Part shown: piece after piece, positions 5,037 through 61,594 of the stretch
Numbering within the stretch: position 1 is the stretch's first letter
Layout: every line of letters begins with the position of its first letter
From: Anaerolineae bacterium
GTDB taxonomy: Bacteria; Chloroflexota; Anaerolineae; Promineifilales; Promineifilaceae
Assembly (NCBI GenBank): GCA_023384415.1
Contig: JAHDWJ010000014.1
Span: 43,943 to 107,942 of the forward strand
Direction: 5' to 3'
DNA length: 64,000 nt
Made by a program: the position numbers and the translations under genes
The notes under the pieces: model-generated
Seen by the model: the letters and a program-made list of their open reading frames with translations, nothing else
Database searches by the model: none
Told to the model about the DNA's origin: nothing

Positions 5037-5078
5037 GTTTTAATTTCGAGTTTTGAGTTTCTGATTTTGAATTTGGGG
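5037..5078 (-). repeat. Heptamer tandem-repeat block (A-type, AAAnTCn) immediately 5' of the gyrA start
   Basis: Gene-sense reading: AAATTCA AAATCAG AAACTCA AAACTCG AAATTAA AACTGGA TCACCCT ATG. Confidence 0.8.
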
Positions 5079-5261
5079 TGGTAAGGTGAAAGGTTGGACG
5101 CGGCTGCAATGATAGAACATTTGTCCGATTATTTCAACCCAAATTTCACCGGTAATTTCCCCTCTTGCGGCCCACTACCCACAAAAAAGTAGGGTGCAGA
5201 CCCCTGCAACCCTACTTTGATACCTGTATACAGCCAAACAAGCAAATGGGCAAATGGGGAG

Positions 5262-5302
5262 TGGTGACTGGAGACTGGCCCACTGCCAACTGGTCACTAC
5301 CC
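5262..5302. repeat. Heptamer tandem-repeat block (D/E-type)
   Basis: GTGACTG GAGACTG GCCCACT GCCAACT GGTCACT, directly 3' of the Rieske gene stop. Confidence 0.7.
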
Positions 5303-5303
5303 C

Positions 5304-5627
5304 CTACTCATCCGGCGATTCCACCCAAATTTCATCCCCTTCAATCTTGACGGTGAAGGTGGGGACGGGTTTGACAGCGGGCATAGCCAACGCTTCCCCG
5401 GTACGAACGTCAAAAATGGCCCCATGACGGGGGCAGTGGATTTCACAATTACGGGCATCAAAAGTGCCATCTCCAAGCGGCCCATCATCATGGGTACACC
5501 GGTCAGCAACACAGTAAAGGGTGCCATTGACATTAAAAATGACAACCGTCTCATCGGCAAAATCATACCAGATGCGTTCCCCTGGGGGGACATCGGCCAG
5601 GTTGGCTACTTTAACAAACTTGGTCAT
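5304..5627 (-). CDS. Small Rieske [2Fe-2S] domain protein (NirD/ferredoxin-like)
   Basis: 107 aa. CTHDDGPL ... CPRHGAIF matches the CxH...CxxH Rieske motif. Confidence 0.8.
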   Translation of the reverse strand: MTKFVKVANLADVPPGERIWYDFADETVVIFNVNGTLYCVADRCTHDDGPLGDGTFDARNCEIHCPRHGAIFDVRTGEALAMPAVKPVPTFTVKIEGDEIWVESPDE

Positions 5628-5658
5628 TGTTTACTTCTCCGCCTTTTATTGTCTTCTG

Positions 5659-5751
5659 GTAACTACTAAACCTTCCGAAGGCTTCCCCACTGGGGATCAT
5701 TGGCAACGAAACCTGCGGAAGGTTATATCACCTGAGAGGGTTAGTAGTTAC
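5659..5751. repeat. Family-1 hairpin element, copy A (degenerate)
   Basis: Inner palindromes AAACCTTCCGAAGGCTT (5668-5684) and GAAACCTGCGGAAGGTTAT (5708-5726), 40 nt apart. An outer 11-bp inverted repeat is present: GTAACTACTAA (5659-5669) / TTAGTAGTTAC (5741-5751). Confidence 0.7.
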
Positions 5752-5760
5752 AGATTTCGG

Positions 5761-6156
5761 TTATTTTCGCATTAGCTCCGGCTCTGGCAGGCCATAAGCT
5801 CCGGCTTTTAATACCTTGAGGGAAAGTAGGGCACATTTCACCCGTGCCATACTCAGAGGAACCCCTAACAGGTCTAAGAGCCGCTCCTTAGGAAATTCCC
5901 GCACTTCGGTCAGGGTCATGCCTTTGATTTCCTCACTCAATAATGAGGCTGAGGCTTGACTGATAGCACAACCATCTCCCCCCCAGGCTACTTCCACGAC
6001 GCGCCCCTGCTCATCTAAACGGACATCCATGCGTATCACATCACCACAAAGGGGATTGTCCTCTTCGTAGGAAAATGTAGCTTTGGTTAAGGAACCATGA
6101 TTCAGAGGGTGTTGGAACAGATCAATGATTTGTTCCCGGTACATATCATCACTCAT
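5761..6156 (-). CDS. SufU/IscU-type Fe-S cluster assembly scaffold
   Basis: NPLCGDVIRMDV, GDGCAISQASASL and RVKCALL supply the three conserved Cys. A GGAGGTG Shine-Dalgarno lies just upstream of ATG 6156; the longer ORF N-terminus is probably not translated. Confidence 0.8.
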   Translation of the reverse strand: MSDDMYREQIIDLFQHPLNHGSLTKATFSYEEDNPLCGDVIRMDVRLDEQGRVVEVAWGGDGCAISQASASLLSEEIKGMTLTEVREFPKERLLDLLGVPLSMARVKCALLSLKVLKAGAYGLPEPELMRK

Positions 6157-6311: not shown

Positions 6312-8228
6312 TTAACGCCCGCGGCCGCGGCCATTGCCATTGCCATTATTGCCATTGCCGTTGCCATTATTGCCGTTGCCATTGCCGTTACCATTACCAT
6401 TGCCATTGCCATTGCCGTTGCCGTTACCATTATTGCCATTGCCACCGCCTCCCCCGTTATTCGGGCAGGGGCCGAGGGTATCCCCATGGGCCAGATGAGC
6501 GGAGAGCGCGGCCGCACCTACAGTTATGGTGTGAGCATTATTGGGGTTGCCTGGCGGGATGTGACAAATGGTTACCATGCCCCCATTTCCTGGTGTCGGC
6601 ATAGGCGTCATTGTTGCCGGTACGGTGGGTGTCGCCGTAATGGTTGGGGTTACGGTGATCGGTGGGGTCACTGTGATGGGTGGTGTCACCGTAATGGTCG
6701 GGGTTGGCGTAATGGTGCTGGTGGGGGTAACTGTTGGTGTACCATTGACGCATGGGCCGAGAACATCCCCATGGGCAAGATGGGCACGGACTGCGGCCGC
6801 GCCTACAGTAATCGTATGGGCATTACCCGGGTTGCCAGGTGGGTAATGGCACAATGTCACCAAACCCCCACTGCCTGGTGTTACCGTAACCGTCACCGGG
6901 ATCGTCGGCGATGGGGTGGGGGTTGGTTCGCCCGGTGGATCTGCCAGGACAATAAGAATGAGCACCACCACATTACCCGCATCATCCGTGCAGGTGATGA
7001 GCAGTACCGGTGCGCCAACAGCCGGTGTCCCTTCCAGTAGAGTCAAATCATTCAGGTTGACAACTGTGCCATTTTCCAGGGTAATTTTCTCCTCATCAAT
7101 AGCCACGATGACCGAAGCTACAGTGACACAGGTGAGATCATCGGGCTGAAAAGCTGTCGGCCCACCCGTGAAAGTGTCTCCTAAAAAGGTACCCGGCGTT
7201 CGTTCGGGACTGATGAAATCAACCAAATAATAGCCGTCAGGAGAGATATGCCCTTCCAGATAAACGGTATCACCAGTATGGATCTTTCCAGCTACCTGGG
7301 TGTCACTGTGAGTAAAAAAGGTTTGTCCGGCCAGGTAATAGCTGTCGGGTTGGACGATGACTGTCCCCTCACCAGTAACCACGAAGGCTGGAGTTTGGGG
7401 AGCTTGCCCTGAATGGACAAGGCTCATCTTACCGGCTGAAATCGCTTGTTTGCCGGTTTGTCCGCTCAGCTCTACCAGCCCTTCAACCACGCTCACTCGT
7501 GTTTGGTTGGCGGCCGCAACCATCACCGCGAAAATAGTTCCCTTGGCCGTACTGATCCCATTGGGAGTTTCCACTTCATAGACTGAGTTAGCGGCCAAAA
7601 CGTGGGCTACATCGTGGCGGGTTTCTCCCGACCCTTGAGCTAAGCGCACCACTCGCTCTCCTTGCGTAACGGTCAGTTCTGTTACCCAAAGCTCCGTATT
7701 GGGGCCGAGGTAAACCAGAGAGCCATCGGGCAAGGCCAGCAAGGCTTTGCCATTGGCCCCGGTACGAATATGTTCACCGACCTGAATAGATGTTGCCTGG
7801 GAGATGGTAGCCCAATTGCCATCGCGCTGCAGCTCAACGACCCCAGTCAGCCGGTTGAGGACTGTACTGCTGGCGACCGTCTGGCCGCGGAAATAGGCTG
7901 CGGAGCCGATAGCGGTTACTACCAGACATAGAAAGAGGAAGGCGGCGGCAAAGGAAAAGCCAATCGCCGGTAGGGCCCAACGGGGGCGGGAAGTGAGGGC
8001 AGAATTGTTGTTCATATGTTGCTCCTTTTGCACCTGTTGTATTAGCTGCATACGCTGCTGTTGCTTGATTTGGGGGTTCCGGGCCGGATATTCCATCTGG
8101 CGCAACGATGCGGCTAAAGCCAACAATTCGGCTTCTTCGGGGGGCAGCCCCTGCTGACACGCAACCAGGGGTACCCCTGTTTCTAACTGTTCTAACTGTT
8201 CCTGGAGTAATTGTTCGGGCGGTTTCAT
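6312..8228 (-). CDS. Anti-sigma factor-like membrane protein with FecR-like domain, T/P-rich linkers, two Cys/His-rich 38-aa repeats and a poly(Gly-Asn) tail
   Basis: ATGA overlap with the upstream ECF sigma gene. One TM segment (ALPAIGFSFAAAFLFLCLVVTAIG) and a FecR-like stretch (GEHIRTGANGKALLALPDGSLVYLGPNTELWV). Repeats: CHYPPGNPGNAHTITVGAAAVRAHLAHGDVLGPC and CHIPPGNPNNAHTITVGAAALSAHLAHGDTLGPC. Confidence 0.7.
   Translation of the reverse strand: MKPPEQLLQEQLEQLETGVPLVACQQGLPPEEAELLALAASLRQMEYPARNPQIKQQQRMQLIQQVQKEQHMNNNSALTSRPRWALPAIGFSFAAAFLFLCLVVTAIGSAAYFRGQTVASSTVLNRLTGVVELQRDGNWATISQATSIQVGEHIRTGANGKALLALPDGSLVYLGPNTELWVTELTVTQGERVVRLAQGSGETRHDVAHVLAANSVYEVETPNGISTAKGTIFAVMVAAANQTRVSVVEGLVELSGQTGKQAISAGKMSLVHSGQAPQTPAFVVTGEGTVIVQPDSYYLAGQTFFTHSDTQVAGKIHTGDTVYLEGHISPDGYYLVDFISPERTPGTFLGDTFTGGPTAFQPDDLTCVTVASVIVAIDEEKITLENGTVVNLNDLTLLEGTPAVGAPVLLITCTDDAGNVVVLILIVLADPPGEPTPTPSPTIPVTVTVTPGSGGLVTLCHYPPGNPGNAHTITVGAAAVRAHLAHGDVLGPCVNGTPTVTPTSTITPTPTITVTPPITVTPPITVTPTITATPTVPATMTPMPTPGNGGMVTICHIPPGNPNNAHTITVGAAALSAHLAHGDTLGPCPNNGGGGGNGNNGNGNGNGNGNGNGNGNGNGNNGNGNGNNGNGNGRGRGR
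6330..6443. repeat. Hexanucleotide microsatellite (GCCATT/GCCGTT)x~19 encoding the (Asn-Gly)n C-terminal tail
   Basis: gccattgccattgccattattgccattgccgttgcc... read directly; translated on the minus strand it gives NGNGNG... Confidence 0.85.
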
Positions 8229-8833: not shown

Positions 8834-9197
8834 CCTTCTTGGTTCTGGCTGGTGGTTTTTCTATAAAGGTTAAACGGCAGAAGACGCAAAAGGATGCAAA
8901 TTAGGAGCTTAGTACCGTTTAGATTGCTGCGCCTTTACCGTTGACTGGGGGGTTCTCGACGACCACTGCCAGAGTAATTCACCCTTTTATCTTGTCCAAT
9001 CAATCAGCAAAATTCTACTGGCTATTGCCAAACGTGCGACCCTGCGTTATCCTTAGAAACGTATGAGTTACTTCAACGTGAGCAAATTCTCTATTTTCCA
9101 AGCGGCTGTGATGTCAGGGACGACGGTGCGTTCTATTAAACGCGCCTCGCTCACGGATTTTATGTAAAGTAACCAACCCATAAAACCCCCAAAATGA

Positions 9198-9230
9198 AAG
9201 CCGAGGTGCATCTGCATCTCGGCTTTTTTG
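9198..9230 (+). terminator. Intrinsic terminator-like hairpin, orphan, upstream of the ABC-F gene
   Basis: AGCCGAG (9199-9205), 12-nt loop, CTCGGCT (9218-9224), followed by TTTTTTG. No annotated + strand gene ends here. Confidence 0.6.
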
Positions 9231-9233
9231 TTT

Positions 9234-9290
9234 GGGGAACTCGTAGGAAATTAAGGGAACTTGTAGGAATAATGGTAACGGATGGTAATT
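9234..9290. repeat. Short tandem repeats (about 19-nt unit x2, then heptamers) in the ABC-F leader
   Basis: GGGGAACTCGTAGGAAATTAA / GGGAACTTGTAGGAATAA, then TGGTAAC GGATGGTAAT. Confidence 0.6.
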
Positions 9291-9366
9291 GTTTCTCATC
9301 GGTGTTTCTTCCTATCCAGGTTCCATATTATCCGTATTGTCAAGCTATTTTGGAAGGAGCAACGTA

Positions 9367-13693: not shown

Positions 13694-13938
13694 GCGAATC
13701 TGGCCTTACTCTACAGGGCGACAAGGCGACAGGGTGAAAAATGCCAGAGTAAGCCCTGCGAGTGTACCTTTCGTTGCTGCGTTTTCCCCCTCCGTTTCTA
13801 CCACCAACTGTGTCACCTAAAACTGATGCGGCCGCGTAAACCCCTTACTATATCCTGTCAGGTCCGAGGCGATAAGGGCCTTGGTTCACCCATAGATCTA
13901 CGAAATGCGTATTAGCATAAATGTTCTAATGTGGTTAA

Positions 13939-14145: not shown

Positions 14146-14151
14146 ATCATT

Positions 14152-15393: not shown

Positions 15394-15402
15394 GTAAGGT
15401 TT

Positions 15403-16762: not shown

Positions 16763-19747
16763 ATGTATGCCGAACTGGTGATCAATATTGAGGCGGGGTT
16801 GGAAAGCACGTTTCATTATCATGTGCCGGCTGATCTGCGGCCGCGTCTCCGCATTGGTCATCTGGTTGAGGTAGAGTTTGGCCGCCGATTGGCTCAGGGA
16901 GTGGTCATCGCTTTCAGTGAAACCGCCCCGGTTGAAGAGACCAAACCGATCATCGCCCTGGTGGATGAACAGCCGGCGGTGCAGCCGTACCAAATTCGCC
17001 TGGCCCAATGGCTGCACCAGCAATACCTGGCCCCCCTCAACGGCTGCCTGCGCCTCATGCTTCCCCCTGGCCTGACCCGCTGGGCCGATACCACCCTGGC
17101 CCTCAACCCCCGTTGGGATGGCACAGGTCGCCTGACGAAGATTCAGCAGGAGTTGATTGATTTACTCAGGGAAAAAGGGGATAGACGCGGCCGCCAACTC
17201 GATAAAGCATTGGGTAGAAAATCGAATTGGAAAGCGGCCGCAACTCAACTAGTCAACCGTGATATCCTCATCAAAGGGACTATCCTCGACCCGCCCCGCG
17301 TCAAACCCAAACAAATTCGTACCGTTGAACTCATCGCCGGGCCAAAACAGATTCGAGCGGCTGCGACCCAACTTGGCCGCCCCAGCAAACAGGCGGATGT
17401 ACTGGATTATCTGCTCACCAGCGACGATCCACTGCCCCGCCTGGGCACGGTGCTGGAAGCTACTGGGGCCACCGGCAAGCATGTTGAAGAACTGATAAAG
17501 GATGGGTTGGTGACGGTCGCGGCCGCAGATAGTATCATTCTACCCACAGGTATAGCCCATGATGCCCCACCTCAATGGCAGCCCATTCTGCAACAGCTTC
17601 CTTCCAGCCGTTCCCAATTGACTCCTGACCAGTGGCAGTTAATCCTTGACCATTTGCAACCACAACATCTGGTTGAACTGATCGATCAACCCGCTTCTCT
17701 TAGCCTGGCCATCCCGCCCAAAGCCGTCTTGTCCCATATTTTTACCCTGCGTCACGCTGCTTTGTACGAAGCGATACTAAACAGGCTGCGCGGCCGCGCC
17801 CAACCCATCTCCACCACCGAACTGTACGCCGAGACCGGGGCCACCCTCAGCCATCTCAAAAAACTCATTGCCCTTGACCTCATCCGGGTTAGCCAGGAAG
17901 AAATATGGCGTGACCCCCTGGCTGACCGGGATTTCACCCCTGCCGAGGCCCCTCTGCTTACCCACGACCAGGCCCGCATCTGGGGGCGGGTGAAGGTGGC
18001 GATGTTGATGGCGATGGGGGATGAGGAAGAGGAGAGTGGGCAGTTAGCCGTGAGCAGTGGGCAGTCAGGGGAACTCGAAACTCGAAACGCGAAACGCGAA
18101 ACTCACTCCTCAACCCTCACCCCTTTTCTCTTACATGGCGTTACTGGCAGTGGCAAAACAGAAATTTACATGCGGGCGATTGAGCTGGCGATTGAGTTTG
18201 GGCAGCAGGCGATTGTCCTGGTGCCGGAGATTGCCCTGACGCCGCAGACAGTGCGCCGCTTTGCCGCCCGGTTTCCGGGGCAGGTGGCTGTTTTGCACAG
18301 CCGCCTCAGTGATGGGGAGCGGTTTGACACCTGGCGGCGGGCGCGGGCCGGCCTGTTTGACATTATTGTGGGGGCGCGGAGTGCCTTATTCACCCCGCTG
18401 CCCAACCTGGGGGTCATTGTGATTGATGAAGAGCATGATCCCAGCTACAAACAAACACCACCTGTGCCCCCTCCCTACTACCACGCTCGTGACACCGCCA
18501 TCGCCTTGGGCGAAATCGCCGGGGCGACGGTCATCATGGGTAGTGCTACCCCAGACCTGGTGACTTACCATCGGGCGCGGGCGGAACGGTATCGGTTGTT
18601 GGAACTGCCCCGCCGGGTGATGGGGCATCGTCAGCGCATTGAGAGCCAGGCGGAGCGGCTCCATTTGCAAGCCAAATATGAACAGATGGGAGATGACCCG
18701 GATGATGCTCTGACCATTCCTCTCCCGCCGGTGCAGGTGGTAGATTTGCGCCAGGAACTCCGGGCCGGCAACCGCTCTATTTTTAGCCGGGCGTTACAAA
18801 CGGCGTTGGATGAGACATTAGCGCGAGGAGAGCAGGCGATTTTGTTCCTCAACCGGCGGGGGACGCACTCTTTTGTGATTTGCCGGGATTGTGGCCTGGT
18901 GCTGAAATGCCGCCACTGTGATATGCCCCTGACCTTCCATCGGCCGCAGCTGCTGTTGGTGTGCCATTATTGCGGCCGCCGCGAGCCTCAGCCCGATGAT
19001 TGCCCCCAATGTGGCTCTAAACGCATCCGGTACTTTGGCCTGGGCACAGAAGAGTTAGAGGAGCAGGTGCAGCAGCGGTGGCCGGATGCCCGGCTGGTAC
19101 GTTGGGATCGGGACACTACCGCCGGCCGGGACAGCCATGAGCAGCTTCTGGCCAGCTTTATCAACCAGGAAGCGGATATTTTGGTCGGGACACAGATGAT
19201 CGCTAAAGGGCTGGATTTGCCCCTGGTGACGCTGGTAGGGGTTATTTCGGCCGATGTGTCGCTAGGGCTGCCTGACTACCGGACCGGGGAGCGTACTTTC
19301 CAGATTTTAACCCAGGTATCTGGCCGGGCAGGGCGGGGGCTGCTGGGGGGGCGGGTGATTGTGCAGACCTATCAGCCGGAGCATTATGCTATTGTCGCGG
19401 CCGCGTCTCACGATTACACCCAATTTTATCTAGAAGAAATCCGCTTCCGCACCCAGCACAGCCTGCCCCCCTTCCGCCGCCTGGCCCGCCTCATCATCGC
19501 CGACCCGGTAGACCAACGGGCCAAACGGCAGGCCGATGAGTTGGCTCACGGGCTGCGCGTCCACATTCGGGACAAAGCCCTGGGCGGTACCGAAATCCTC
19601 GGCCCCACCCCCCCCTTTTTCAGCCGGATAGACGGCCGCTACCGCTGGCAAATCATCATCCGCTCCCCCGATCCCATCCGCCTGCTAGAAGATTTTCCCA
19701 TCCCCCATCCCTGGGTGGTAGATATTGATCCGGTCAGTACGCTATAG
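16763..19747 (+). CDS. priA: Primosomal protein N' (replication restart helicase PriA), unusually long at 994 aa
   Basis: Walker [20 protein letters not shown] box, Cys-rich zinc region [20 protein letters not shown]...[19 protein letters not shown], and [10 protein letters not shown]. Confidence 0.9.
18037..18124 (+). repeat. Composite heptamer repeat block (E + A + B' units) in frame inside priA
   Basis: GGGCAGTTAGCCGTGAGCAGTGGGCAGTCAGGGG AACTCGA AACTCGA AACGCGA AACGCGA AACTCAC TCCTCAA CCCTCAC. 20-nt identities to 60239-60258 and 27133-27152, and a 12-nt identity to 57182-57193 (reverse complement). Confidence 0.85.
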
Positions 19748-21857: not shown

Positions 21858-21887
21858 GCCAATCCCCAAAATCTGCGTTAATCTGGG
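21858..21887. repeat. Family-2 element fragment (R2, inverted)
   Basis: The reverse complement reads CCCAGATTAACGCAGATTTTGGGGATTGGC. It matches the left half of R3 and R4. Confidence 0.55.
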
Positions 21888-21939
21888 CATGACTCTTTGG
21901 CAATGTTAGACCTATTGAATCTCTAGTCTCGCAGCAGTC

Positions 21940-22620: not shown

Positions 22621-22707
22621 TTGTCAAGCGATTGCCCAAATTGGCCGCGAAAGCTGTTAATCTCATTCATTTTGTGCTAACCTGGAGAGCGTAAATTAAA
22701 AACCCAT

Positions 22708-22774
22708 CCGCAGATTAAGCCAGATTTTGGGGAATCAGATAGAAGAAATCGGCCATAATCAACGAAATCTGCGG
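22708..22774. repeat. Family-2 hairpin element, copy R3 (67 bp)
   Basis: CCGCAGATT...AAATCTGCGG, a 9-bp terminal inverted repeat. 48/67 identity to R4 by hand alignment. Confidence 0.7.
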
Positions 22775-24121: not shown

Positions 24122-24123
24122 GG

Positions 24124-24160
24124 GAAATTGAGAGACTGGAGATTGGAGACTCAGGAGATC
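24124..24160. repeat. Heptamer repeat block (D-type) forming the LOG gene leader
   Basis: Plus strand GAGAGACTGGAGATTGGAGACTCAGGAGATC. Gene sense: GATCTCC TGAGTCTCC AATCTCC AGTCTCT CAATTTCCC ATG. Confidence 0.75.
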
Positions 24161-24180
24161 AAAACCAGGAAAAAATTTAT

Positions 24181-24247
24181 CTGCCGATTAACACAGATTT
24201 TAGGGATTAGCCTGAGAAAAATCGGCGTTAATCGGCGAAATCTACGG
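24181..24247. repeat. Family-2 hairpin element, copy R4 (67 bp)
   Basis: CTGCCGATTAACACAGATTTTAGGGATTAGCC...AATCGGCGAAATCTACGG. Same length as R3. Confidence 0.7.
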
Positions 24248-24323
24248 ATGAAAACCAGCTTTTGCTATACAGAGATTAGAGATTGGTGACCGGGCGGTTG
24301 GCAAACCCCTCATATCACATACC

Positions 24324-27059: not shown

Positions 27060-27062
27060 AGT

Positions 27063-27165
27063 AGTTTCGAGTTTCGAGTGATCGTATTCATAATCGAGTG
27101 GGCGAGTGGGCGAGTAGGGGAGTGAGCGAGTCACTCACTCCTCAACCCTCACTCCTCATCCCTCA
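27063..27165. repeat. Composite 7/8-mer repeat block (B + C + A units) spanning the ATPase stop codon and the permease leader
   Basis: Gene sense: GAGGGATGAGGAGTGAGGGTTGAGGAGTGAGTGA CTCGCTCACTCCCCTACTCGCCCACTCGCCCACTCGA...CACTCGAAACTCGAAACTACT ATG. Confidence 0.85.
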
Positions 27166-27835
27166 CCAGTTTCCCATCCACCAGCGTCAACATCCGGTCG
27201 GCCTGGCTGGCGATATGGGGATCATGGGTGACCAGGATAACCGTAGTGCCAAAATCATCCCGCACCTGTCGTAAAGTTGACATAACCAGTTCGCTCGCCT
27301 CAGTATTGAGATTTCCCGTTGGTTCATCGGCCAGGAGAATAGGGGGATTGTTAGCCAGGGCGCGGGCGATAGCTACCCGCTGCTGCTGACCACCAGAAAG
27401 TTGGTTTGGCCGATGGCGTAACCTGTCCCCCATGCCAAAATGGGTGAGCAGTTCGGTGGCCCGTGCCTGGGGTTTGAACTGGGGACGGTGGGCAAACTCA
27501 ACCGGCAAGGCCACATTTTCCAGGGCGTTCAGGTTGGGGATGAGGTTAAAAAATTGGAAAACAAAGCCTAACTTTTCATTTCGAATAGTCGTTAAGTCTC
27601 GTTCGTTTAGAGTGCTGATTTCTGTGCCATCCAGGACAATGCTGCCTTCATCGGCCTTATCCAAACCGCCAATGAGGCCGAGCAGGGTACTTTTCCCCCC
27701 GCCAGACGGGCCAACAATGCCGACCATTTCCCCCCGATTGATGGTGAAGGTGACATTATCAACCGCGTGGACGGTTTGTTCGCCAAGTTTAAAGGTTTTA
27801 CGCAAATCGCGTACTTCAATGATGGGTGTAGACAT
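27149..27835 (-). CDS. ABC transporter ATP-binding protein (MacB/LolD-like)
   Basis: GPSGGGKST, LSGGQQQRVAIARAL, LLADEPTGNLD. AGGAG lies upstream of ATG 27835. Confidence 0.9.
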   Translation of the reverse strand: MSTPIIEVRDLRKTFKLGEQTVHAVDNVTFTINRGEMVGIVGPSGGGKSTLLGLIGGLDKADEGSIVLDGTEISTLNERDLTTIRNEKLGFVFQFFNLIPNLNALENVALPVEFAHRPQFKPQARATELLTHFGMGDRLRHRPNQLSGGQQQRVAIARALANNPPILLADEPTGNLNTEASELVMSTLRQVRDDFGTTVILVTHDPHIASQADRMLTLVDGKLVRDEE

Positions 27836-27912
27836 GAGGTACTCCTGTGTTTGGTGAGGACTGAGGATTGAATTCTCTGAAGTTCCTAACCTGGACAAGC
27901 CAGAAGAGATTT

Positions 27913-27969
27913 ATCCACAGATGTCACAGATTTTCAAGACATCGGTGGAAATCTATGTCATCTGTGGAT
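27913..27969. repeat. Short hairpin element R5 (family-2-related)
   Basis: 14-bp terminal inverted repeat ATCCACAGATGTCA / TGTCATCTGTGGAT (one mismatch), enclosing CAGATTTTCAAGACATCGGTGGAAATCTA. Confidence 0.6.
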
Positions 27970-28141
27970 CACTTCTTATTTTTTGTCCAAGAAGTTGACT
28001 TGTAAGGTACTGTCGTCCTGCTGAGGTCTTGGTTATGATAGCCAATTCATGCTGATGGATATGGGGCATGGTATGGGGGAATGTCAAGAAACCGATTGCT
28101 GTACGCAGAAATGGGGGCCAGGTTGCGGAAAGGGGGGACGG

Positions 28142-33819: not shown

Positions 33820-33844
33820 CGTAAGCAATTATGCGTGACATTCT

Positions 33845-33937
33845 CAGTAAAACGTGTAACCTTCGGAAGGTTTGGTCCAAGAGCTTGTCCATCACAGAAA
33901 CCTTCCGAAGGTTCGCCCCAACTTATTGAGAAGATAC
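33845..33937 (+). repeat. Family-1 hairpin element, copy B (93 bp)
   Basis: About 90% identical (84/93 by hand) to the reverse complement of 59101-59193. Contains AACCTTCGGAAGGTT (33858) and AACCTTCCGAAGGTT (33899), 41 nt apart. Confidence 0.85.
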
Positions 33938-33951
33938 GGTTATGCCAACTA

Positions 33952-45724: not shown

Positions 45725-45795
45725 GGTTAGGTAGGTAGATGGTACTAGTTAGGATGGGAGATTGAGAGATGGGGGATTGCTAACTGCTAACTGCC
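45725..45795. repeat. Heptamer repeat block (D + E' units) in the E1 gene leader
   Basis: GGTTAGG TAGGTAG ATGGTAC TAGTTAG GATGGGA GATTGAG AGATGGG GGATTGC TAACTGC TAACTGC, followed by AGGAGG and TTG 45811. Confidence 0.75.
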
Positions 45796-50159: not shown

Positions 50160-50281
50160 GGCTATTCTCCAGAGCGGTTTTCACTGTAAATGACAGAAAC
50201 CTTCCGAAGGTTTGATTCCCTGCCAATACCGGTCAGAAAACCTTCGGAAGGTTATGATGAATAAAGGCTATTCTCCAGAGC
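50160..50281. repeat. Family-1 hairpin element, copy C, with flanking 16-nt direct repeats
   Basis: GGCTATTCTCCAGAGC occurs at 50160-50175 and 50266-50281. The second copy includes the stop codon and last codons of the acyl-CoA synthetase gene. Between them: AAACCTTCCGAAGGTTT (50197) and AAAACCTTCGGAAGGTT (50237). Confidence 0.75.
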
Positions 50282-54396: not shown

Positions 54397-56799
54397 TCAT
54401 AACAACTGGGGCAAGAGTAAGAGGAAGAGGGTGATGAGCAGACAAAAAAGTCCCGTCGCCAGGAGAACCCATAATGGCATGATCGGGGGGATTTCGATTT
54501 CTCCGACTTTGATTTGGGTGTCGCCGTGACTCGCTTTGATCTGAACGCGGAACGGGATGGTTTGAGGTTTTCCCCACAGCGGCCGCGTACTGGTCCAAAT
54601 AGTCAGGGGTAAACTACCCTGTTGGCCAGGAGCCAGCCGCAGCCGCTCAGCTTGACCAGTGAATTGGAGCGGGGTTTCGTTGTCACTGGTGCGGGCTAAT
54701 AGGGCGAAGGTGGTTTCGATGTTGCCCAGGTTATGAATCTGAACGACGCAGGGCTGCTGCGGCCGCACCTGTTCCGGGGTTAATGTGGCTGTAAAAGAGA
54801 TATTCTCCTTAATCTGTACATAACCAGTGGCTACCGTAACAATATCTGGGGCCGTCTCTGGGGAAACACGAACGATAAAGGTGCGCTGCCCTGGCTCAAC
54901 GGCCCGTTCCAGGGTGTTTAGCAAATTGATTTGCAGCACATCTTGTTCCCCCGCCTCTAAAACGAGCCGGTTTTCGGGAATGCTCACCCAGGTTGGAGGC
55001 AGCCCTTCTACCTGGAGATAAAACCGCTCGGCCATTTGCCCCTGATTGGTGATTAGCACCTGGATAAACGATTCCTGCCCTGGGGTAATTTCTACCATAG
55101 TAGGGATAAGGGTGAGATTTACCAGCGGTACAGGCAGGGGAGAAACTGGTGTCATGGGTTCGATGAGAGGAAGGAGTGAGGGCGAAAAATCAGGAACAGA
55201 AGGCTCGCTTTCCGGCATCCATCCTTCGTCACCAGTTGTCACAAGAAGTGTAGAGGGGTGGCCGAAGAGGGGAGATTCACTTTCCGTTATCCGTCCTTCG
55301 TCACCTGTCCTCACAAGGAGTGAGGATGGAGGATCAAAAAGGGTAGACTCACGTTCGGTTATCTGTCCTTCGTCACCTGGCCTTATAAGGAGTGAGGATG
55401 GCGGACCGAAGTGGGAAGGCTCACTTTCCGTCATCGTTCCTTCGTCTTTCGTCGCCAACCCAAAAGCCAGGGGGAATACCGCCCGAAATCGCTCGGCAGC
55501 GGAAATGTCTTGCTCTTGTGATGGGGGTGGGGGTAAAGGCGGGATTGACAAGGGCTGTTGATTGGGGTCAATGGGCTGCCAGCGCAAGGTGAATCCCCCT
55601 AATTGGGCTGGTTCATTGGCGGCCCAGTGATAAGGTTGACGCGGCCGCAGTCGTTCTTGACTCATCCATACCCCATTGGTGCTGTCCAGGTCTAACAAAT
55701 GCCAGCCAGTGCCGAGCCACTCAATGCGAGCATGGTAGCGAGATACGCCCTGTTCGGGCAGCGGTAAATCATTTTTCTGGCTGCGGCCAATCGTCAATAT
55801 GGGCTTATCCAAAGAGATACGCTGTTCTGGGGATCCGGTGTGGCTAATGATCAATTCGGCTGGGGAAGGGGCAACAGGTGGGGCAGACATTTTATGGCTG
55901 GTCAGCCATTCTTGAACGGATTCGCCCCCTGTTGTATCTTTACTTTTACTGACCTCGCGCAAGGCGGCCAGGAGATGGCTGGCTGATTGTAAACGATGTC
56001 CTGGCTGTTTGGCTAACCCTTTTTGCAAAATAGCAGTTACTTTTGGGGAAAGCTGAGGGCGTAGGTTTGCAGGGGGTAGGGGAACTACCTGCTGATGGTG
56101 GTAGCGGGCTTCATCCAGAGAATGGGTGATGAAAGGGGGTTGCCCGGTGATGAGATGGTATAAATTGGCGGCCAGGTTATACAGGTCAGTAGCGGGTGAT
56201 GGGGTGAACCCATCGGTTTGTTCTGGGGCGGCATAGGGCCAGAGGGAGGGAAAAGGAGTGAGTAGATGCGGGTGGCGGCCGGCCAGCAAAGACCAGACAC
56301 CGCTGTCCAGAACGGTTAATTTCCAGGGGGTATCGTCGTTATCGGAGAGGGGGATGAGCCACAAGTTGACCGGGTGGATGGCCCCGTGAATTTCGTTTTG
56401 GTGGTGGAGGTAATCGAGCGCGGCCGCGGCCTGCTGTCCCAAGGTGAGTGTATCAGCCAGGGTGATATGGGAATGGCGTGAGGCCAGCCGTTGCAGCAGA
56501 ACCGCCAGGGAGAGGCCGTCATAGGCCGGGCGCACCCAGTAGCCGGTTTGTTGGTGCCAGCCATAGGCCAGGATGGGGGCCAGGTGAGGATGATGGAGAG
56601 TCGCGGCCGCATGCCCCCACTGCCGGAATCGTTTTTCGTCTGGAGACAGATGGGGATGGAGCAGCTTGATAATGACTGTCTGGTCGGAGAGTAGGTTGCG
56701 GCCGCGGAAAACCGCTGTCACCCCACCCTCACCCAACAATTCCTGTAGCTGGTACTCGCCCAACTGTTCTCCGCTCCAATCTAACCAATTCGTGCTCAT
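54397..56799 (-). CDS. Predicted pseudokinase (degenerate Ser/Thr kinase fold) with FHA domain, 24-aa tandem repeats, Ig-like modules and a C-terminal TM anchor
   Basis: The catalytic loop reads IHGAIHPVNL instead of HRDLKPxN (Asp->Ala, Lys->His). DSG replaces DFG. The VIIK lysine and AAPE are retained. FHA: LTIGRSQKNDLPLPEQGVSRYHARIEW...DLDSTNGVW. Confidence 0.75.
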   Translation of the reverse strand: MSTNWLDWSGEQLGEYQLQELLGEGGVTAVFRGRNLLSDQTVIIKLLHPHLSPDEKRFRQWGHAAATLHHPHLAPILAYGWHQQTGYWVRPAYDGLSLAVLLQRLASRHSHITLADTLTLGQQAAAALDYLHHQNEIHGAIHPVNLWLIPLSDNDDTPWKLTVLDSGVWSLLAGRHPHLLTPFPSLWPYAAPEQTDGFTPSPATDLYNLAANLYHLITGQPPFITHSLDEARYHHQQVVPLPPANLRPQLSPKVTAILQKGLAKQPGHRLQSASHLLAALREVSKSKDTTGGESVQEWLTSHKMSAPPVAPSPAELIISHTGSPEQRISLDKPILTIGRSQKNDLPLPEQGVSRYHARIEWLGTGWHLLDLDSTNGVWMSQERLRPRQPYHWAANEPAQLGGFTLRWQPIDPNQQPLSIPPLPPPPSQEQDISAAERFRAVFPLAFGLATKDEGTMTESEPSHFGPPSSLLIRPGDEGQITERESTLFDPPSSLLVRTGDEGRITESESPLFGHPSTLLVTTGDEGWMPESEPSVPDFSPSLLPLIEPMTPVSPLPVPLVNLTLIPTMVEITPGQESFIQVLITNQGQMAERFYLQVEGLPPTWVSIPENRLVLEAGEQDVLQINLLNTLERAVEPGQRTFIVRVSPETAPDIVTVATGYVQIKENISFTATLTPEQVRPQQPCVVQIHNLGNIETTFALLARTSDNETPLQFTGQAERLRLAPGQQGSLPLTIWTSTRPLWGKPQTIPFRVQIKASHGDTQIKVGEIEIPPIMPLWVLLATGLFCLLITLFLLLLPQLL
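55204..55456. repeat. 72-bp tandem repeat, about 3.3 copies, inside the pseudokinase gene
   Basis: Encodes ESEPSHFGPPSSLLIRPGDEGQIT / ERESTLFDPPSSLLVRTGDEGRIT / ESESPLFGHPSTLLVTTGDEGWMP / ESEPS... Confidence 0.85.
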
Positions 56800-57004: not shown

Positions 57005-57056
57005 GGGGATTTAACTGGGGATTGGGGGGATTCAGAGATTCAGAGATTGGAGACTG
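57005..57056. repeat. Heptamer/octamer repeat block (D-type)
   Basis: GGGGATTTAACTGGGGATTGGGGGGATTCAGAGATTCAGAGATTGGAGACTG. Confidence 0.75.
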
Positions 57057-57161: not shown

Positions 57162-57194
57162 CAACTGCTTACTGCCCACTGCGGCTAACTGCCA
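57162..57194. repeat. Heptamer repeat block (E-type) overlapping the stop codon of the FHA-gpI gene
   Basis: CAACTGC TTACTGC CCACTGC GGCTAACTGCC. The reverse complement shares GGCAGTTAGCCG with 18039-18050. Confidence 0.75.
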
Positions 57195-58195: not shown

Positions 58196-58210
58196 GGGTA
58201 TCTCCTGGAA

Positions 58211-58245
58211 GGATGAATTAAGAATGATGAATTATGAAGGATAAG
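58211..58245. repeat. Heptamer repeat block (GATGAAT type)
   Basis: GGATGAAT TAAGAAT GATGAAT TATGAAG GATAAG. Shares GATGAATTATGA with 60212-60223. Confidence 0.7.
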
Positions 58246-58301
58246 CCAGGGTGAATCTTATGTACAGACTTGCCCACTCGCAAATTCGCCAACATTGTAA
58301 C

Positions 58302-59093: not shown

Positions 59094-59214
59094 CCTTACC
59101 GTATCTTCTCAATAAGTTGGGGCGAACCTTCGGAAGGTTTGGGAAATGGACAAGCTCTTGAGTCAAACCTTCCGAAGGGTACATGTTTTACTGTGATGTT
59201 ACCCCTTACCGTAT
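59093..59214. repeat. Family-1 hairpin element, copy D (59101-59193, inverted), with flanking 12-nt direct repeats
   Basis: CCCTTACCGTAT occurs at 59093-59104 and 59203-59214. The core is 84/93 identical to copy B in reverse complement. Confidence 0.8.
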
Positions 59215-59976
59215 ATTAAAGCAGCCTCGTGTTGAAGCGATTACCGTCCGCTGACTCTGGTTCATATAAGCCACCTGCCAATGGTAATCATTGGTCGTGT
59301 CCTGGTAAAAAGTTGAAACCGGCACCCGCCAGACCCATAAATTTTGCGCCGGAATAGAGAGAACATCATTATTTAGCCCTCCCAAACTGGTCAAATTGGT
59401 TGCCCCCCTGGGGCCAACCCGCACTTCTAGATAAAACCCATTGGCCGTATCTACTCGTTGCGTCCAGGTCCATTGGAACTCAATAGTGCTGCCTCGGTCA
59501 AAGGTGCTGATGTTGTTCTGGCAGTTAGTGTGATTAGCCAGGCGGGGGGCGGGAATGCCGGTTCCTGCTGTGGCAGTGGGGGATGGGGTATCGGTAGGCA
59601 GCAGGGTGGGCGATGGTTCACTCCCGGGAGTGGCCGTAATCGGGGCTTTGACCGTAGGTGTAGCTGTGGGTGGTAGTTCGGTGGGGGTAGAGGTGAATAT
59701 GGGCAGAGTGGCCGGGGCGGTCGTGGCTGTGTCCGTAGCCGGGATTGGCGAGGGGGTTGATGTTGTTTCGGCAGCCACCGTAAGTTCTGAGGTAATGTCG
59801 GCGACGGTTTCGGGGGTGAGGGATAGGGTAATGTCGCTGGTGGGAGGTTCACCAGTGCCCGTACTTTGGGTTTGGGGGTAGACCAGAAAAAAAGCGGCCG
59901 CAGCCAGAACAAGCAAACACAGGCATCCCAAAAACAAGATACCAATGATCACAAAAATAGAGCGTTTATCGTTCAT
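59206..59976 (-). CDS. Membrane-anchored T/P-rich protein with an unknown ~110-aa C-terminal domain
   Basis: TM segment IFVIIGILFLGCLCLLVLAAAAFFLV, then a Thr/Pro-rich spacer, then a Trp-rich C-terminal domain. Confidence 0.55.
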   Translation of the reverse strand: MNDKRSIFVIIGILFLGCLCLLVLAAAAFFLVYPQTQSTGTGEPPTSDITLSLTPETVADITSELTVAAETTSTPSPIPATDTATTAPATLPIFTSTPTELPPTATPTVKAPITATPGSEPSPTLLPTDTPSPTATAGTGIPAPRLANHTNCQNNISTFDRGSTIEFQWTWTQRVDTANGFYLEVRVGPRGATNLTSLGGLNNDVLSIPAQNLWVWRVPVSTFYQDTTNDYHWQVAYMNQSQRTVIASTRGCFNIR

Positions 59977-60204
59977 ACTATTACCCCCACGATTTGATTA
60001 TGGCACGTCTTTAGGGTTTTGCGGGGTTTTGTCTGATGGGGAATGCCTCTCTGTCACATTGTATGACCCCCACAAACGCCGCAAGAGCCATGGTGGCATT
60101 TTCCCACTTGTTAGCAGCCTGTATTTTTACGTAAAAACGCAGAGACGCAAATGTTGCCTGCCCTTTTCTCTGGTCAAACCTGCATAACCCGTTTAGAATC
60201 CGGT

Positions 60205-60303
60205 TATGAGGGATGAATTATGAGGGATGAAAGGGTGAGGGAACTCGAAACTCGAAACTAGAAACTAGAAACTCGGAACTAGAAACTAGAAACTCGGAAC
60301 TAA
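60205..60303 (+). repeat. Composite heptamer array (B units, then nine A units) in the muramidase gene leader
   Basis: TATGAGGGATGAATTATGAGGGATGAAAGGGTGAGG, then GAACTCG AAACTCG AAACTAG AAACTAG AAACTCG GAACTAG AAACTAG AAACTCG GAACTAA. AAGGAG and ATG 60319 follow. Confidence 0.9.
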
Positions 60304-60318
60304 ACAAGGAGTCATCTT

Positions 60319-61515
60319 ATGAGTGAGCGAACTGGTCAGACTATAGCCGTGCCGGTTTATATGCGGAGTGGTCCAGGGATTCAACACCCCGCGGCCGCGA
60401 CCCTACCCCCTGTTACCCCTTTCACTGTCTTAATGGAGATGGCTCCCTGGCTCCATATCCATTGTGACCTGGGCGAAGGGTATTTGCACCAAAATTTTGC
60501 CACTTTAGACCCCATTGAAGATTGGGCCGTCTCTTTTGCCCTGGAGATTGTCCGCACCGGCAAGGCACGTAACTTTCTCAACTTACGCTCCGGCCCTGGC
60601 ACCCACTTTGATCGCATTGTTGTCCTGGCTCCAGAGACACCGCTGGAGATTCAATCTCAAGAAGGGGTGTGGCTTAAAGTATCGGCTGAGGGGGTTGTGG
60701 GGTATGTTCACAGCGATTTTGTCGTCTTAGACCCACTGCCTACACCAACAATCCCGCCCGGCACCAACCCACCCCCACAGCTGCCCGTGGACATTCGCCC
60801 CGGAGAGGAGAATTTGCAGCCCCCAGCCCACGAGATGCTGACAGCCCCTGTTGGCAGTGATACCACAACCCGCAGCGTGGCCCGAATCTGGAACCGGTTT
60901 GGTGGTCTGTTTCAGGAGCTGTCACAGCAGCTGCGGATTGATCCTGGGGTGGCGGTGGCTGTTTTTCTCATCGAATCCGGGGGCGAAGGGTTTGGGTCTG
61001 ATGGCCGGTTGAAGATTCGTTTTGAGAACCATGTGTTCCGCAACTATTGGGGCAAACTCAATCCTGACCGGTTCGCCCAACATTTTCGCCATGATTCCCC
61101 CCGTACCTGGGAGAATCATTTCTGGCGGCCGCATCCCGATGGCGAATGGTTATCTTTTCATGGTAACCAGGCGAAAGAGTGGGAGGTATTTAACTTTGCC
61201 CGCACTCTGGACGACACGGCGGCCAAAATGTGTATTAGTATGGGGGGGCCACAAATTATGGGGTTCAATCATGCTACCACTGGCTTTGAGTCGGTGCATC
61301 AGATGTTTGATGCTTTTGCTCAGGGCAACCGGGGGCAGATTATCGGCTTTTTCCGCTTTGTGCAGGGGGGGACACCCAACTCCCAGCGGTTGGTGGCTCT
61401 GCAAACACTTGATTTTGAGAAATTCGCCAGCCTATACAACGGCCCCGGTCAGGCTGCCCGCTATGCCGGTCTGATCCAGGGGGCGTATGAGCGGTTCCGG
61501 CAGTTGAGGGGGTAA
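60319..61515 (+). CDS. Two SH3b-like domains plus N-acetylmuramidase (DUF3380-type) domain; endolysin-like
   Basis: Two SH3b-like modules: MRSGPGIQHP...GEGYLHQNF, and LNLRSGPGTHFDRIVVL...VWLKVSAEGVVGYVHSDFV. C-terminal AVFLIESGGEGF...IRFENHVF...FASLYNGPGQAARYAGLI. No signal peptide is evident. Confidence 0.7.
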   Translation: MSERTGQTIAVPVYMRSGPGIQHPAAATLPPVTPFTVLMEMAPWLHIHCDLGEGYLHQNFATLDPIEDWAVSFALEIVRTGKARNFLNLRSGPGTHFDRIVVLAPETPLEIQSQEGVWLKVSAEGVVGYVHSDFVVLDPLPTPTIPPGTNPPPQLPVDIRPGEENLQPPAHEMLTAPVGSDTTTRSVARIWNRFGGLFQELSQQLRIDPGVAVAVFLIESGGEGFGSDGRLKIRFENHVFRNYWGKLNPDRFAQHFRHDSPRTWENHFWRPHPDGEWLSFHGNQAKEWEVFNFARTLDDTAAKMCISMGGPQIMGFNHATTGFESVHQMFDAFAQGNRGQIIGFFRFVQGGTPNSQRLVALQTLDFEKFASLYNGPGQAARYAGLIQGAYERFRQLRG

Positions 61516-61594
61516 GGGAGACAGGGAGAACGGGAGGGTTGGAGACTCTTTACTCGCCTACTCGCCTACTCGCTCACTCGCTCACTCGCAAACT
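61509..61594 (+). repeat. Composite 7/8-mer repeat block bridging the muramidase stop and the rlmI-like start
   Basis: GGGTAAG GGAGACA GGGAGAA CGGGAGG GTTGGAG ACT, then TACTCGCC TACTCGCC TACTCGC TCACTCGC TCACTCGC AAACT ATG. Confidence 0.85.

Follow-up and report, generated by a model that had tools for sequence, protein, structure and literature searches.

STRR-type heptamer and octamer arrays at gene boundaries of a Chloroflexota genome

The short tandemly repeated repetitive (STRR) heptanucleotides of heterocystous cyanobacteria (Calothrix, Anabaena and Nostoc) were reportedly described by Mazel et al. in 1990, and the small dispersed repeats (SDR) of Nostoc are said to have been treated by Elhai et al. 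in 2008. Here we describe tandem arrays of 7- and 8-nt units in a 64-kb stretch of DNA from an Anaerolineae bacterium (contig JAHDWJ010000014.1 of assembly GCA_023384415.1, positions 43,943 to 107,942); this whole stretch is called the window. The blocks are STRR-type long simple sequence repeats (SSRs), both heptamers and octamers, in a genome of the Chloroflexota (Anaerolineae/Ardenticatenia-like). Their best explanation, to which we assign a probability of roughly 55%, is that they are slippage-born, ectopically copied arrays of untranslated regions (UTRs), filtered by selection at the mRNA level.

Heptanucleotides are the most abundant class of long SSRs in most prokaryotic genomes, and polymerase slippage over about 7 nt has been proposed for heptamer SSRs, both according to Mrázek (2007) as cited in PMC4679880. 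Three tandemly repetitive heptanucleotides of Calothrix PCC7601 are cited in PMC4692102 (Rehm 2015), which itself describes quadruplex-forming arrays of GGGNATC in Xanthomonas and of GGGGA(C/T)T in Nostoc. In those arrays the G-rich strand is the non-coding one up to 50 bp upstream of open reading frames (ORFs) and the coding one up to 50 bp after, or overlapping, stop codons; the arrays come as inverted pairs, are transcribed, show no link to mobile elements and are locally stable in the genome (PMC4692102). MacGregor (2015) found TAACTGA arrays close upstream of start codons, at a distance of a few nucleotides and in many cases with no Shine-Dalgarno (SD) sequence, in Beggiatoaceae, Cyanobacteria and Bacteroidetes (PMC4679880). 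They are mixed with other heptamers, differ between strains by indels in 7-nt steps and coincide with assembly breaks, and in BOGUAY the repeats overlap the expected ribosome-binding site and SDs are rare (PMC4679880). STRR-like repeats outside cyanobacteria are already established. Since non-cyanobacterial heptamer repeats had been published (Mrázek 2007; MacGregor 2015; Rehm 2015), a preliminary description of this DNA overstated its case in calling such arrays notable for their host, although the STRR-like character, shared vocabulary and boundary bias that it reported were borne out. In the literature searched, no report links heptamer repeats with Chloroflexi or Anaerolineae.

All 12 repeat blocks of that description are real, with exact coordinates and with sequences that match the quoted units, denoted A (AACTCGA/AACTAGA), B (GAGGGAT/GAGGAGT/GAGGGTT), C (octamers), D (GGAGATT/GGAGACT) and E (GGGCAGT/TAACTGC); one of them, 18037-18124, is an in-frame part of priA and not a leader. 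Using Tandem Repeats Finder (TRF), we called 11 period-7 arrays in the window, where 40 dinucleotide shuffles gave a mean of 1.2 and a maximum of 5, and six period-8 arrays (shuffle mean 1.27, maximum 4). This is five to nine times the shuffle level, with 2.1 to 8.7 units per array. Non-coding DNA makes up 12.7% of the window, yet it holds 13 of the 17 TRF arrays. A map of 42 genes was built from the called genes of matching loci. At least 14 array loci are present in the 64 kb, with several unit types and with composite blocks in which different units are neighbours. Two arrays (5242-5258 and 13713-13731) are additional to the 12 blocks, and the family extends into 15 kb flanking the window, with arrays of CGAGTAGG, CTCACTC and GAAACTA. 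The blocks therefore show the tandem units, the over-representation and the dispersal over mainly intergenic loci by which heptameric long SSRs of the STRR type are recognized.

The blocks are not independent low-complexity runs, as had been proposed. Fourteen block pairs have a 10-mer in common, against 0.26 expected from mononucleotide shuffles and 0.92 from random window segments, and seven pairs have a common 12-mer (0.03 and 0.15 expected, respectively). The longer shared strings were found where they had been reported, namely GGGAACTCGAAACTCGAAAC at both 18069 and 60239, ACTCACTCCTCAACCCTCAC at both 18101 and 27133, GATGAATTATGA at both 58226 and 60212, and GGCAGTTAGCCG at 18039 with its reverse complement at 57182. 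An unbiased repeat search independently gave the same matches between blocks (D4, D9, D15 and I9). Since the blocks are base-for-base identical in independent Sequence Read Archive (SRA) assemblies, they are not assembly artefacts. Seven independent SRA assemblies end exactly at 60242, the 5' edge of the (AACTCGA/AACTAGA)n array, which is expected if near-identical copies of this array exist elsewhere in the genome.

The host is non-cyanobacterial, as its proteins had suggested. The window proteins match exactly on contig JASNYM010000001.1 of GCA_048500155.1, many SRA runs contain near-identical contigs, and NCBI names its PriA "MAG: primosomal protein N'" of an Anaerolineae bacterium (MAG, metagenome-assembled genome). 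The nearest relatives of PriA and GyrA are found in MAGs of the Ardenticatenaceae and Promineifilaceae, including 'Candidatus Leptofilum' (Chloroflexota/Ardenticatenia). The gene content, with Tad pili, a clade-II-type nos cluster, an extracytoplasmic function (ECF) sigma factor, Ser/Thr kinases and GAF-SpoIIE, is consistent with the Chloroflexota.

The arrays are concentrated at gene boundaries. Of 12 intergenic blocks, nine are no more than 20 nt away from a start or stop codon, where 2.4 are expected from random placement inside intergenic DNA only (P<0.0002), and stop codons are overlapped at 27149-27151, 57185-57187 and 61513-61515; both the bias and the overlaps agree with what had been described. 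The strand is equally regular. All seven arrays within 40 nt (1-35 nt) upstream of a start in the window, which adjoin the gyrA, LOG, MacB (two arrays), FHA, SH3-muramidase and PUA-methyltransferase genes, are G-poor in mRNA sense, and five of the seven arrays just after or overlapping a stop are G-rich. In independent loci 11 of 15 upstream arrays were G-poor and 14 of 19 downstream arrays G-rich, giving combined figures of 18/22 (p=0.004) and 19/26 (p=0.03), so that the combined arrays follow the strand rule of Rehm (2015) on both sides of the gene. A replication-strand cause of this polarity was rejected, as 11 of 18 arrays are G-rich on the plus strand and gene orientation fits better.

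Where two genes follow each other in tandem (27060-27166 on the minus strand, and 61509-61594), the junction reads stop, G-rich units, C-rich units, start. This layout explains the fixed "B then A" order that had been noted in the leaders at 27063-27165 and 60205-60303. The order B, (C), A ahead of the downstream gene is correct in both, but the general polarity, G-rich after stops and G-poor before starts, accounts for it better than a fixed composite element. In the priA block A units precede a C-rich string in direct orientation, and the orientation is inverse at 27063-27165.

Leaders that carry arrays contain few guanines, with 3.5 G at positions -30 to -1 against 6.7 in the other leaders (p=0.004). 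The gyrA leader is nearly free of structure (minimum free energy -0.6 kcal/mol, z +1.76), and the FHA gene leader with the array at 58208-58245 has a fold z of +1.30. The SD core is missing in four of six array-led genes (gyrA, LOG, MacB and PUA methyltransferase) against 16 of the 36 others; this depletion is a trend only and is not significant (p=0.40).

To follow the arrays in relatives, we compared genus-level loci (L143, L146, L147 and L148) and family-level loci (L144, L145 and L149, the last from Ca. Leptofilum). Synteny around priA is not kept in the 85% relative, and the gyrA and ABC-F neighbourhoods were compared for their spacers. A pattern scan of the Rieske-gyrA spacer gave a terminator-like hairpin (5208-5191) and a promoter-like site (5137-5109), both on the minus strand. 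They coincide with the only stretches conserved in this spacer of the genus-level relatives, ...AGTAGGGTGCAG..CTGCGCCCTACTTTTTT and ...AAACAAATGTTCTATAATTGCGGCCGCG, and the promoter-like site is a TATAAT box in the relatives. The conserved terminator and TATAAT-type box would assign the arrays at 5242-5302 to the Rieske 3'UTR and that at 5036-5074 to a gyrA 5'UTR of about 77 nt. Directly after the Rieske stop the window has GGCAGTG-type units, L146 has (GTTTCGA)n and (TCAATCTC)n, and L148 has other units. Adjoining the gyrA ATG are AAACTCA/AAACTCG in the window and (AATACGG)n in L146 and L147. The gyrA leaders of four genus-level genomes all lack an SD and terminate in a short array; the Rieske-gyrA spacer of the family-level L149 contains no arrays.

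In the ABC-F leader of L146, GGAACTCGTAGGAA...GGGAACTTG is still present, now expanded into AACTTGA, AACCTGA and two AACTCGA units, and this longer A-type array is direct evidence of expansion in place. A and D units reappear at non-orthologous sites in L146, as do C and D units in L143, so the vocabulary outlives the individual arrays. At the genus level (85-89% GyrA identity) array positions persist while unit sequences turn over, which suggests that any functional signal does not reside in the particular units.

These leaders also bear on the idea of a post-transcriptional regulon, in which G-poor arrays would be cis-acting RNA sites for a ribosome component or RNA-binding protein, such as S1, a cold-shock protein or a CsrA-like factor, that drives or regulates SD-independent initiation; an RNA-site role was proposed by MacGregor for the TAACTGA repeats (PMC4679880). 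The uniform G-poor sense of the arrays 1-16 nt from seven starts, the four array-led genes without an SD core, the SD-less, array-ending gyrA leaders across four genomes and an A, C and D vocabulary kept across the genus all fit such a regulon, as does the parallel with the repeats over the expected ribosome-binding sites of BOGUAY and its rare SDs (PMC4679880). Units that differ by species in orthologous leaders (AATACGG versus AAACTCG) are hard to square with a sequence-specific binder, however, and the SD comparison (present in 2/6 versus 20/36, p=0.40) is not significant. Moreover, the units are not confined to leaders, being found also in 3'UTRs, in antisense and within priA, A arrays lack strand bias across phyla, and the array-led genes are functionally unrelated. 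We regard a regulon as possible but unlikely.

The block at 18037-18124 is in frame within a 994-aa PriA ORF, five residues before the strand leading to Walker A. Because the alignment to the solved PriA 4NL4 resumes exactly there (query residue 450 = residue 230), the block represents an expanded loop, a linker of disordered type, before the P-loop strand. This loop is hypervariable in 119 relatives, with 0-60 unrelated residues. The priA case illustrates that arrays can remodel essential proteins. The block is a mosaic, whose pieces match 60239, 27133 and 57182 over 12-36 nt (85-100%); a non-periodic 20-mer is among them. The corresponding linkers of relatives hold GACACGGC and TCGCCCCC in L143 (fold z -2.67), GACAAGGG and TCTCCCCC in L144 (z -1.22), and CAGTGAA and ATTCACT in L145 (z -3.14). 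Each of the three is G-rich and then C-rich, with partly complementary halves; the window's own priA block is not structured (z +0.75). A second in-frame site of 7/8-mer arrays lies upstream in the priA of L143 (10854-10946, GATTTAC x4.6 and CAGTCTCC x5.9) and of L145 (10879-10912, CCCAATTA x4.2); at this upstream site no tandem array was detected in the window's priA.

Alternatively, the arrays might be structure-forming elements, with G-quadruplexes (G4s) from G-rich arrays and hairpins in DNA or RNA from G-rich/C-rich pairs acting as 3'UTR stabilisers, terminators or attenuators, or insulators separating cistrons, along the lines of Rehm (2015) or of REP/BIME elements. The B and C units at 27095-27166 form a hairpin, GGAGTGAG...CTCACTCC (z -1.64), and together with the other composite G-to-C junction block of the window (z -2.08) it folds moderately better than shuffles; counting the linkers of L143 and L145, four of five composite blocks beat their shuffles. 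Arrays inverted about a spacer are also seen in relatives and other phyla, the position and strand rule is that of the published G4 repeats, and GGGGATT is the published G4-forming unit of Nostoc (PMC4692102). Against this stand the modest z-scores and the positive value for the window's priA block, and most leader arrays (A, C and D) look designed for lack of structure. The Rieske arrays, in addition, are already followed by a true terminator, and only the block at 61508-61534 overlaps a canonical G4 motif, for which reason G4 potential was rejected as a general property of the blocks. Rfam 15 covariance models gave no matches at the gathering threshold in the whole window. A structural role for the arrays in general is, in our judgement, quite improbable.

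The mosaic priA block, the in-frame 'insertion' that it represents in an essential gene, the 12-20-nt non-periodic strings that recur unchanged at unlinked loci and the seven SRA runs that break at an A array, implying near-identical copies in the genome, might also be taken as traces of miniature mobile or actively copied elements, similar to the Nostoc SDR and inserted as units by a trans-acting machinery. Inspection of the block borders and the priA comparison (about 79 kb of genome) gave no terminal inverted repeats (TIRs) or target-site duplications (TSDs), the blocks have no fixed length, order or orientation, and no transposase or candidate enzyme is linked to them. The priA linker is array-variable in all relatives, not empty versus filled. 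Among metagenome contigs the shared non-periodic 20-mer ACTCACTCCTCAACCCTCAC showed no dispersal, although its three matches all belong to one unrelated gut locus and are uninformative in this respect. Mobile elements are a highly improbable source of the blocks.

Copy-number variation, for which a strain comparison had been suggested, was absent from every block. Strain contigs 0.2-0.5% diverged from the window showed 26-82 SNPs over 5-17 kb and no gaps, and the blocks were identical in 4-11 strain contigs each (gyrA leader 8, priA 11, E1 leader 4, PUA leader 8). Contingency loci, in which changes in array copy number switch the expression of the adjacent gene, classically have short tandem repeats between promoter and start codon, an arrangement also seen here. 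According to the introduction of PMC4679880, 7-bp repeats are used for phase variation in some pathogens. The lack of any copy-number change across the strain contigs, in which a (GCCATT)n array does vary, excludes the blocks from this class, and their neighbours are housekeeping genes (gyrA, priA, LOG, rRNA methyltransferase) and not surface or virulence genes. Contingency loci are therefore scarcely credible here and largely refuted already.

The (GCCATT)n array is a coding repeat (6330-6459) in the minus-strand gene 6312-8228, downstream of the ECF sigma gene. It encodes the (NG)n C-terminal tail of an anti-sigma-like protein of 638 aa, which ranges from 614 to 640 aa among SRA assemblies, and SRA contigs break inside it; in its variability it is unlike the heptamer blocks. 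The same gene contains 18-nt PT-rich repeats at 6624-6730. A large HEAT-like membrane protein is encoded next to gyrA by gene 1-2512 (plus strand), which continues left of the window (L273 12514-15255); it measures 913 aa in the MAG and 923 aa in seven SRA contigs, with an 18-nt repeat at 64-100 near the 5' end.

The breadth of the A unit was assessed by a scan for (AACTMGA)3 in one genome per species, for which about two chance matches are expected by our own calculation. As a three-unit array it was found at 118 loci or more in over 10 phyla, the groups listed including Acidobacteriota, Planctomycetota, Bacteroidota, Verrucomicrobiota, Chloroflexota, Desulfobacterota, Cyanobacteria and Vibrionaceae. 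Among the matches listed, A arrays are flanked by other heptamer arrays and sometimes form inverted arrays around a spacer, and the 824 kb of foreign loci that these matches cover contain 390 period-7 arrays against 61 of period 8, with 239 arrays carrying about 160 other units. Period 7 is also dominant in the loci of the relatives. Based on crude ORF calls, A arrays among the matches listed show no strand bias relative to genes (34 versus 25 upstream, 29 versus 37 downstream), on which ground a universal sense-strand function of the unit was rejected. In viral contigs, a collection different from that of the genome scan, the A unit occurred 7 times against 0, 2 and 7 for composition-matched control heptamers and 107 for TAACTGA. 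A vocabulary shared across phyla, or a horizontally spread element, was rejected on these counts, the A unit being no commoner than the controls; we read its breadth as the general abundance of heptamer SSRs.

What we observe directly is where the arrays lie, their polarity, the unstructured leaders, positions that persist while units turn over, and one expansion in place. From this we infer three steps: slippage, ectopic copying and a selective filter. Arrays would be born, and remodelled in place, by slipped-strand mispairing in a 7-8-nt register. Pieces of arrays would occasionally be copied between loci by ectopic gene conversion or template switching, and this copying would explain why a genome has a small shared vocabulary, why the priA block is a mosaic and why unlinked loci contain the same non-periodic 20-mers. 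Selection on the mRNA would then act near starts, where only G-poor, structure-free orientations may persist, since an array without structure does not occlude initiation; such an array could even replace a Shine-Dalgarno leader. Just after stops the G-rich orientation would be tolerated, leading to the stop, G-rich, C-rich, start junctions and sometimes to hairpins.

Several points weigh against this account. Slippage was not observed, and the absence of indels in strains 0.2-0.5% diverged implies that any turnover of units is slow. Arrays persist at three sites over 11-15% protein divergence, with the A, C and D vocabulary present genus-wide; given the deletion bias of bacteria, positive selection on the arrays or units could be responsible. 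The priA linkers are G-rich and then C-rich with no start or stop codon nearby, and a filter acting on UTRs leaves their polarity unexplained. Both the persistence and the linker polarity leave room for the competing explanations. The statistics on polarity are based on some 48 array-boundary pairs, with some arrays counted at both a stop and a start, and the evidence as a whole is the sequence of about 79 kb of this genome.

A palindrome was said to accompany the arrays and to resemble the highly iterated palindrome (HIP) of cyanobacteria. The resemblance holds, in that GCGGCCGC is present in 119 copies in the 64 kb, but it is not HIP1 itself, GCGATCGC, which has no copies. Base composition alone would give about 1.7 copies of GCGGCCGC, and no 8-mer is more frequent in the window. 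It is often extended to CGCGGCCGCG (the full 10-mer in 43/119), and 114 of the 119 copies are in coding DNA. The density is similar in the genus-level relatives (L143, L146, L147, L148), at 27-36 per approximately 20 kb, and drops to 1-3 copies in the family-level L144, L145 and L149. GCGGCCGC is a HIP1-like highly iterated palindrome of a Chloroflexota genus. Neither GCGGCCGC nor Chloroflexi is mentioned in the HIP papers PMC4390886 and PMC5861425, and this palindrome may be a more novel lead than the heptamer arrays.

Taken together with GCGGCCGC, the arrays would permit a bolder interpretation, namely a selected UTR 'grammar' of the Chloroflexota genus. Position-conserved but unit-variable G-poor arrays would be SD-independent leaders for ribosome landing (gyrA, LOG, MacB, rRNA methyltransferase), G-rich arrays would mark 3'UTRs, and the same process would build the hypervariable PriA linkers across the Ardenticatenia/Promineifilales-like clade; HIP and STRR, both hallmarks of cyanobacteria, would then be convergent in this filamentous-type Chloroflexota lineage through a shared cause in DNA metabolism. 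We put this forward tentatively, as a speculation that is unlikely to hold. The features of the window are collected in Table 1.

Table 1. Repeat arrays of the window and example sites of the iterated palindrome.
Feature	Position	Strand	Context
G-poor A-like heptamer array, sense ...AATCAGAAACTCAAAACTCGAAATTAAAAC	5036..5074	-	gyrA 5'UTR, 10 nt upstream of ATG 5025; no SD; TRF period 7 x5.7
GCAAATGG x2.1 and ACTGG/ACTGC-type units	5242..5302	-	Rieske 3'UTR, between stop (5304) and terminator hairpin 5208-5191
GGGGAACTCGTAGGAA / GGGAACTTGTAGGAA block	9234..9290	+	between attenuator-like terminator 9197-9229 and ABC-F start 9367
ACAAGGCG octamer x2.4	13713..13731	+	19 nt past stop of Ser/Thr kinase (STK)-TPR gene
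Composite: GGGCAGT-type, then AACTCGA/AACGCGA, then CTCACTCC/CTCACCC	18037..18124	+	in frame within priA
D units, GGAGATT/GGAGACT on + strand	24123..24160	-	mRNA leader G-poor, TCTCC-type; 1 nt upstream of LOG-family start 24121; no SD
A units, sense ACTCGAAACTCGAAACT	27063..27079	-	3 nt upstream of MacB/FtsX start 27059; no SD
C octamer units, sense ACTCGCCC x4.6	27095..27131	-	G-poor in sense; intercistronic, ABC ATPase / MacB; inverted match to 61568-61594 (I9, repeat search)
B units, sense GAGGGAT/GAGGAGT/GAGGGTT	27134..27166	-	G-rich in sense; overlaps last codons and stop (27149-27151) of ABC ATPase gene
GGTAGGT / GGGAGATT / GGGGGATT / TGCTAAC units	45725..45795	+	upstream of E1 dehydrogenase gene
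GGGGATT (STRR1/Nostoc-type) and CAGAGATT units on + strand	57005..57056	-	G-poor on mRNA; between FHA and STK-FHA genes
E units, xACTGCx	57162..57194	-	G-rich in sense; over FHA gene stop 57185-57187
GGATGAA/GAATGAT on + strand	58208..58245	-	G-poor on mRNA; 12 nt upstream of FHA gene start 58195
TTATGAGGGATGAA (14-nt) / GAGGGAT units	60204..60242	+	G-rich in sense; distal part of muramidase leader (D15 match)
A units AACTCGA/AACTAGA/AACTCGG x8.7	60242..60302	+	21-nt super-period; 16 nt upstream of SH3-muramidase ATG 60319; then AAGGAG SD
G-rich octamers, AAGGGAGA-type	61509..61546	+	overlaps muramidase stop 61513-61515
C units TACTCGCC/CACTCGCT x4.9	61551..61589	+	G-poor in sense; 5 nt upstream of PUA-methyltransferase ATG 61595; no SD
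GCGGCCGC example sites	4678-4685, 12125-12132, 29730-29737, 47044-47051

Two further types of intergenic repeat are present. Paired palindromes AACCTTC(C/G)GAAGGTT, 41 nt apart, were found at 5669-5724, 33842-33940, 50198-50253 and 59098-59196, with one element of about 99 nt as an inverted pair 25 kb apart (90% complementary, I1). This family is dispersed, intergenic and similar to repetitive extragenic palindromic (REP) sequences or miniature inverted-repeat transposable elements, and SRA contigs end at its members. The other type has ...CCGCAGATTAAxCCAGATTTTGGGGA... / ATCTGCG motifs, with copies at 21863-21898 and 22698-22733 (I4, 36 nt, 81% complementary) and similar strings at 24170-24250 and 27905-27975; a strain contig and the window diverge at 21526, at the border of the spacer with the first copy. 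Upstream of the ABC-F gene a small ORF of 34 codons (MSYFNVSKFSIFQAAVMSGTTVRSIKRASLTDFM, 9063-9167, plus strand) is followed by an intrinsic-terminator hairpin (9197-9229), and L146 and L148 retain both the core Q-x-AVMSG and the terminator. The arrangement looks like a leader-peptide attenuator of the ABC-F (antibiotic resistance, ARE-like) gene, and a 61-aa minus-strand gene call at 9114-9299 is probably spurious. The STK-FHA gene 54397-56799 (minus strand) includes a 72-nt tandem repeat (x3.4, 77% matches) at 55199-55446. In the 1.2-kb 'intergenic' region before the muramidase there is a 256-aa minus-strand ORF (59206-59976) with a hydrophobic N-terminal segment, whereas the gene called in public records is a plus-strand ORF of 108 aa (59555-59881), and the annotation is uncertain.

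The three orthologous sites (gyrA leader, Rieske 3'UTR and priA linker) separate the presence of an array from the need for a particular sequence. If the polarity holds genome-wide, it would point to a general mRNA-level filter on the survival of simple repeats in bacteria, leaving G-poor unstructured leaders and G-rich 3' ends. In practical terms, the arrays break short-read assemblies and yield spurious small ORF calls and ambiguous start codons.

Among known systems, REP sequences and bacterial interspersed mosaic elements (BIMEs), as well as the Nostoc SDR, resemble the blocks in that they are genome-specific families of very short intergenic sequences, the same strings occur at many loci, and hairpins can form. 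The blocks differ in that they are tandem, without defined ends, TIRs or TSDs, and the host genome has a separate, truly palindromic family (AACCTTCSGAAGGTT). The long SSRs of 5-11-nt units (LSSR5-11) in the survey of Mrázek, Guo and Shah (2007), as summarised in PMC4679880, comprise over-represented 7-nt tandem arrays of large-genome non-pathogenic bacteria, and the preference for period 7 is found again here; that survey predates the Anaerolineae and Ardenticatenia genomes.

The likeness to the TAACTGA repeats extends to occasional arrays within ORFs, to assembly breaks and to the mixture of heptamers, and perhaps to forward arrays near starts that often lack an SD, and the E unit TAACTGC and A unit AACTCGA of the window resemble TAACTGA. 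Exact TAACTGA arrays are not in the window, which has only the related TAACTGC, CAACTGC and CCACTGC (45778-45794; 57162-57194). Indels in 7-nt steps separate close strains there, whereas the strain contigs here show none; in addition, many unit types are used here with no single dominant one, and arrays are equally common after stops.

With the STRR sequences the blocks share several types of tandem heptamer, many and mostly intergenic loci, and composite blocks side by side. An STRR1-type unit, CCCCAATCCCCAGT, is present in two copies on the minus strand at 57014-57027 (CCCCAAT/CCCCAGT = GGGGATT). STRR sensu stricto have a heterocystous cyanobacterial host and the units CCCCA(A/G)T, TTGGTCA and CAACAGT; here the host belongs to the Chloroflexota, only one block is of the STRR1 type, and most units (AACTCGA, ACTCGCC, GAGGGAT, GGAGACT) are outside the canonical three. 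Octamers occur almost as often as heptamers, and the arrays are short, with 2-9 units.

The repeats of Rehm (2015) obey an identical position and strand rule, are likewise paired, inverted and stable and, as seems to hold here, not tied to mobile elements, and include the GGGGATT found here. In the window GGGGATT is in tandem only at 57005-57033, and the blocks are not G4 heptamers (GGGNATC or GGGGA(C/T)T with at least four G-tracts); a single block has a G4 motif, the vocabulary is broader and includes G-poor units without G-tracts, and there is no preference for four units. No earlier report from the Chloroflexota was found, and STRR-type arrays with the strand and position rule of Xanthomonas and Nostoc are hereby extended to this phylum. 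Our additions to what was established are a host from the Chloroflexota, a confirmed strand rule, arrays conserved in position and variable in unit, and arrays in frame within PriA.

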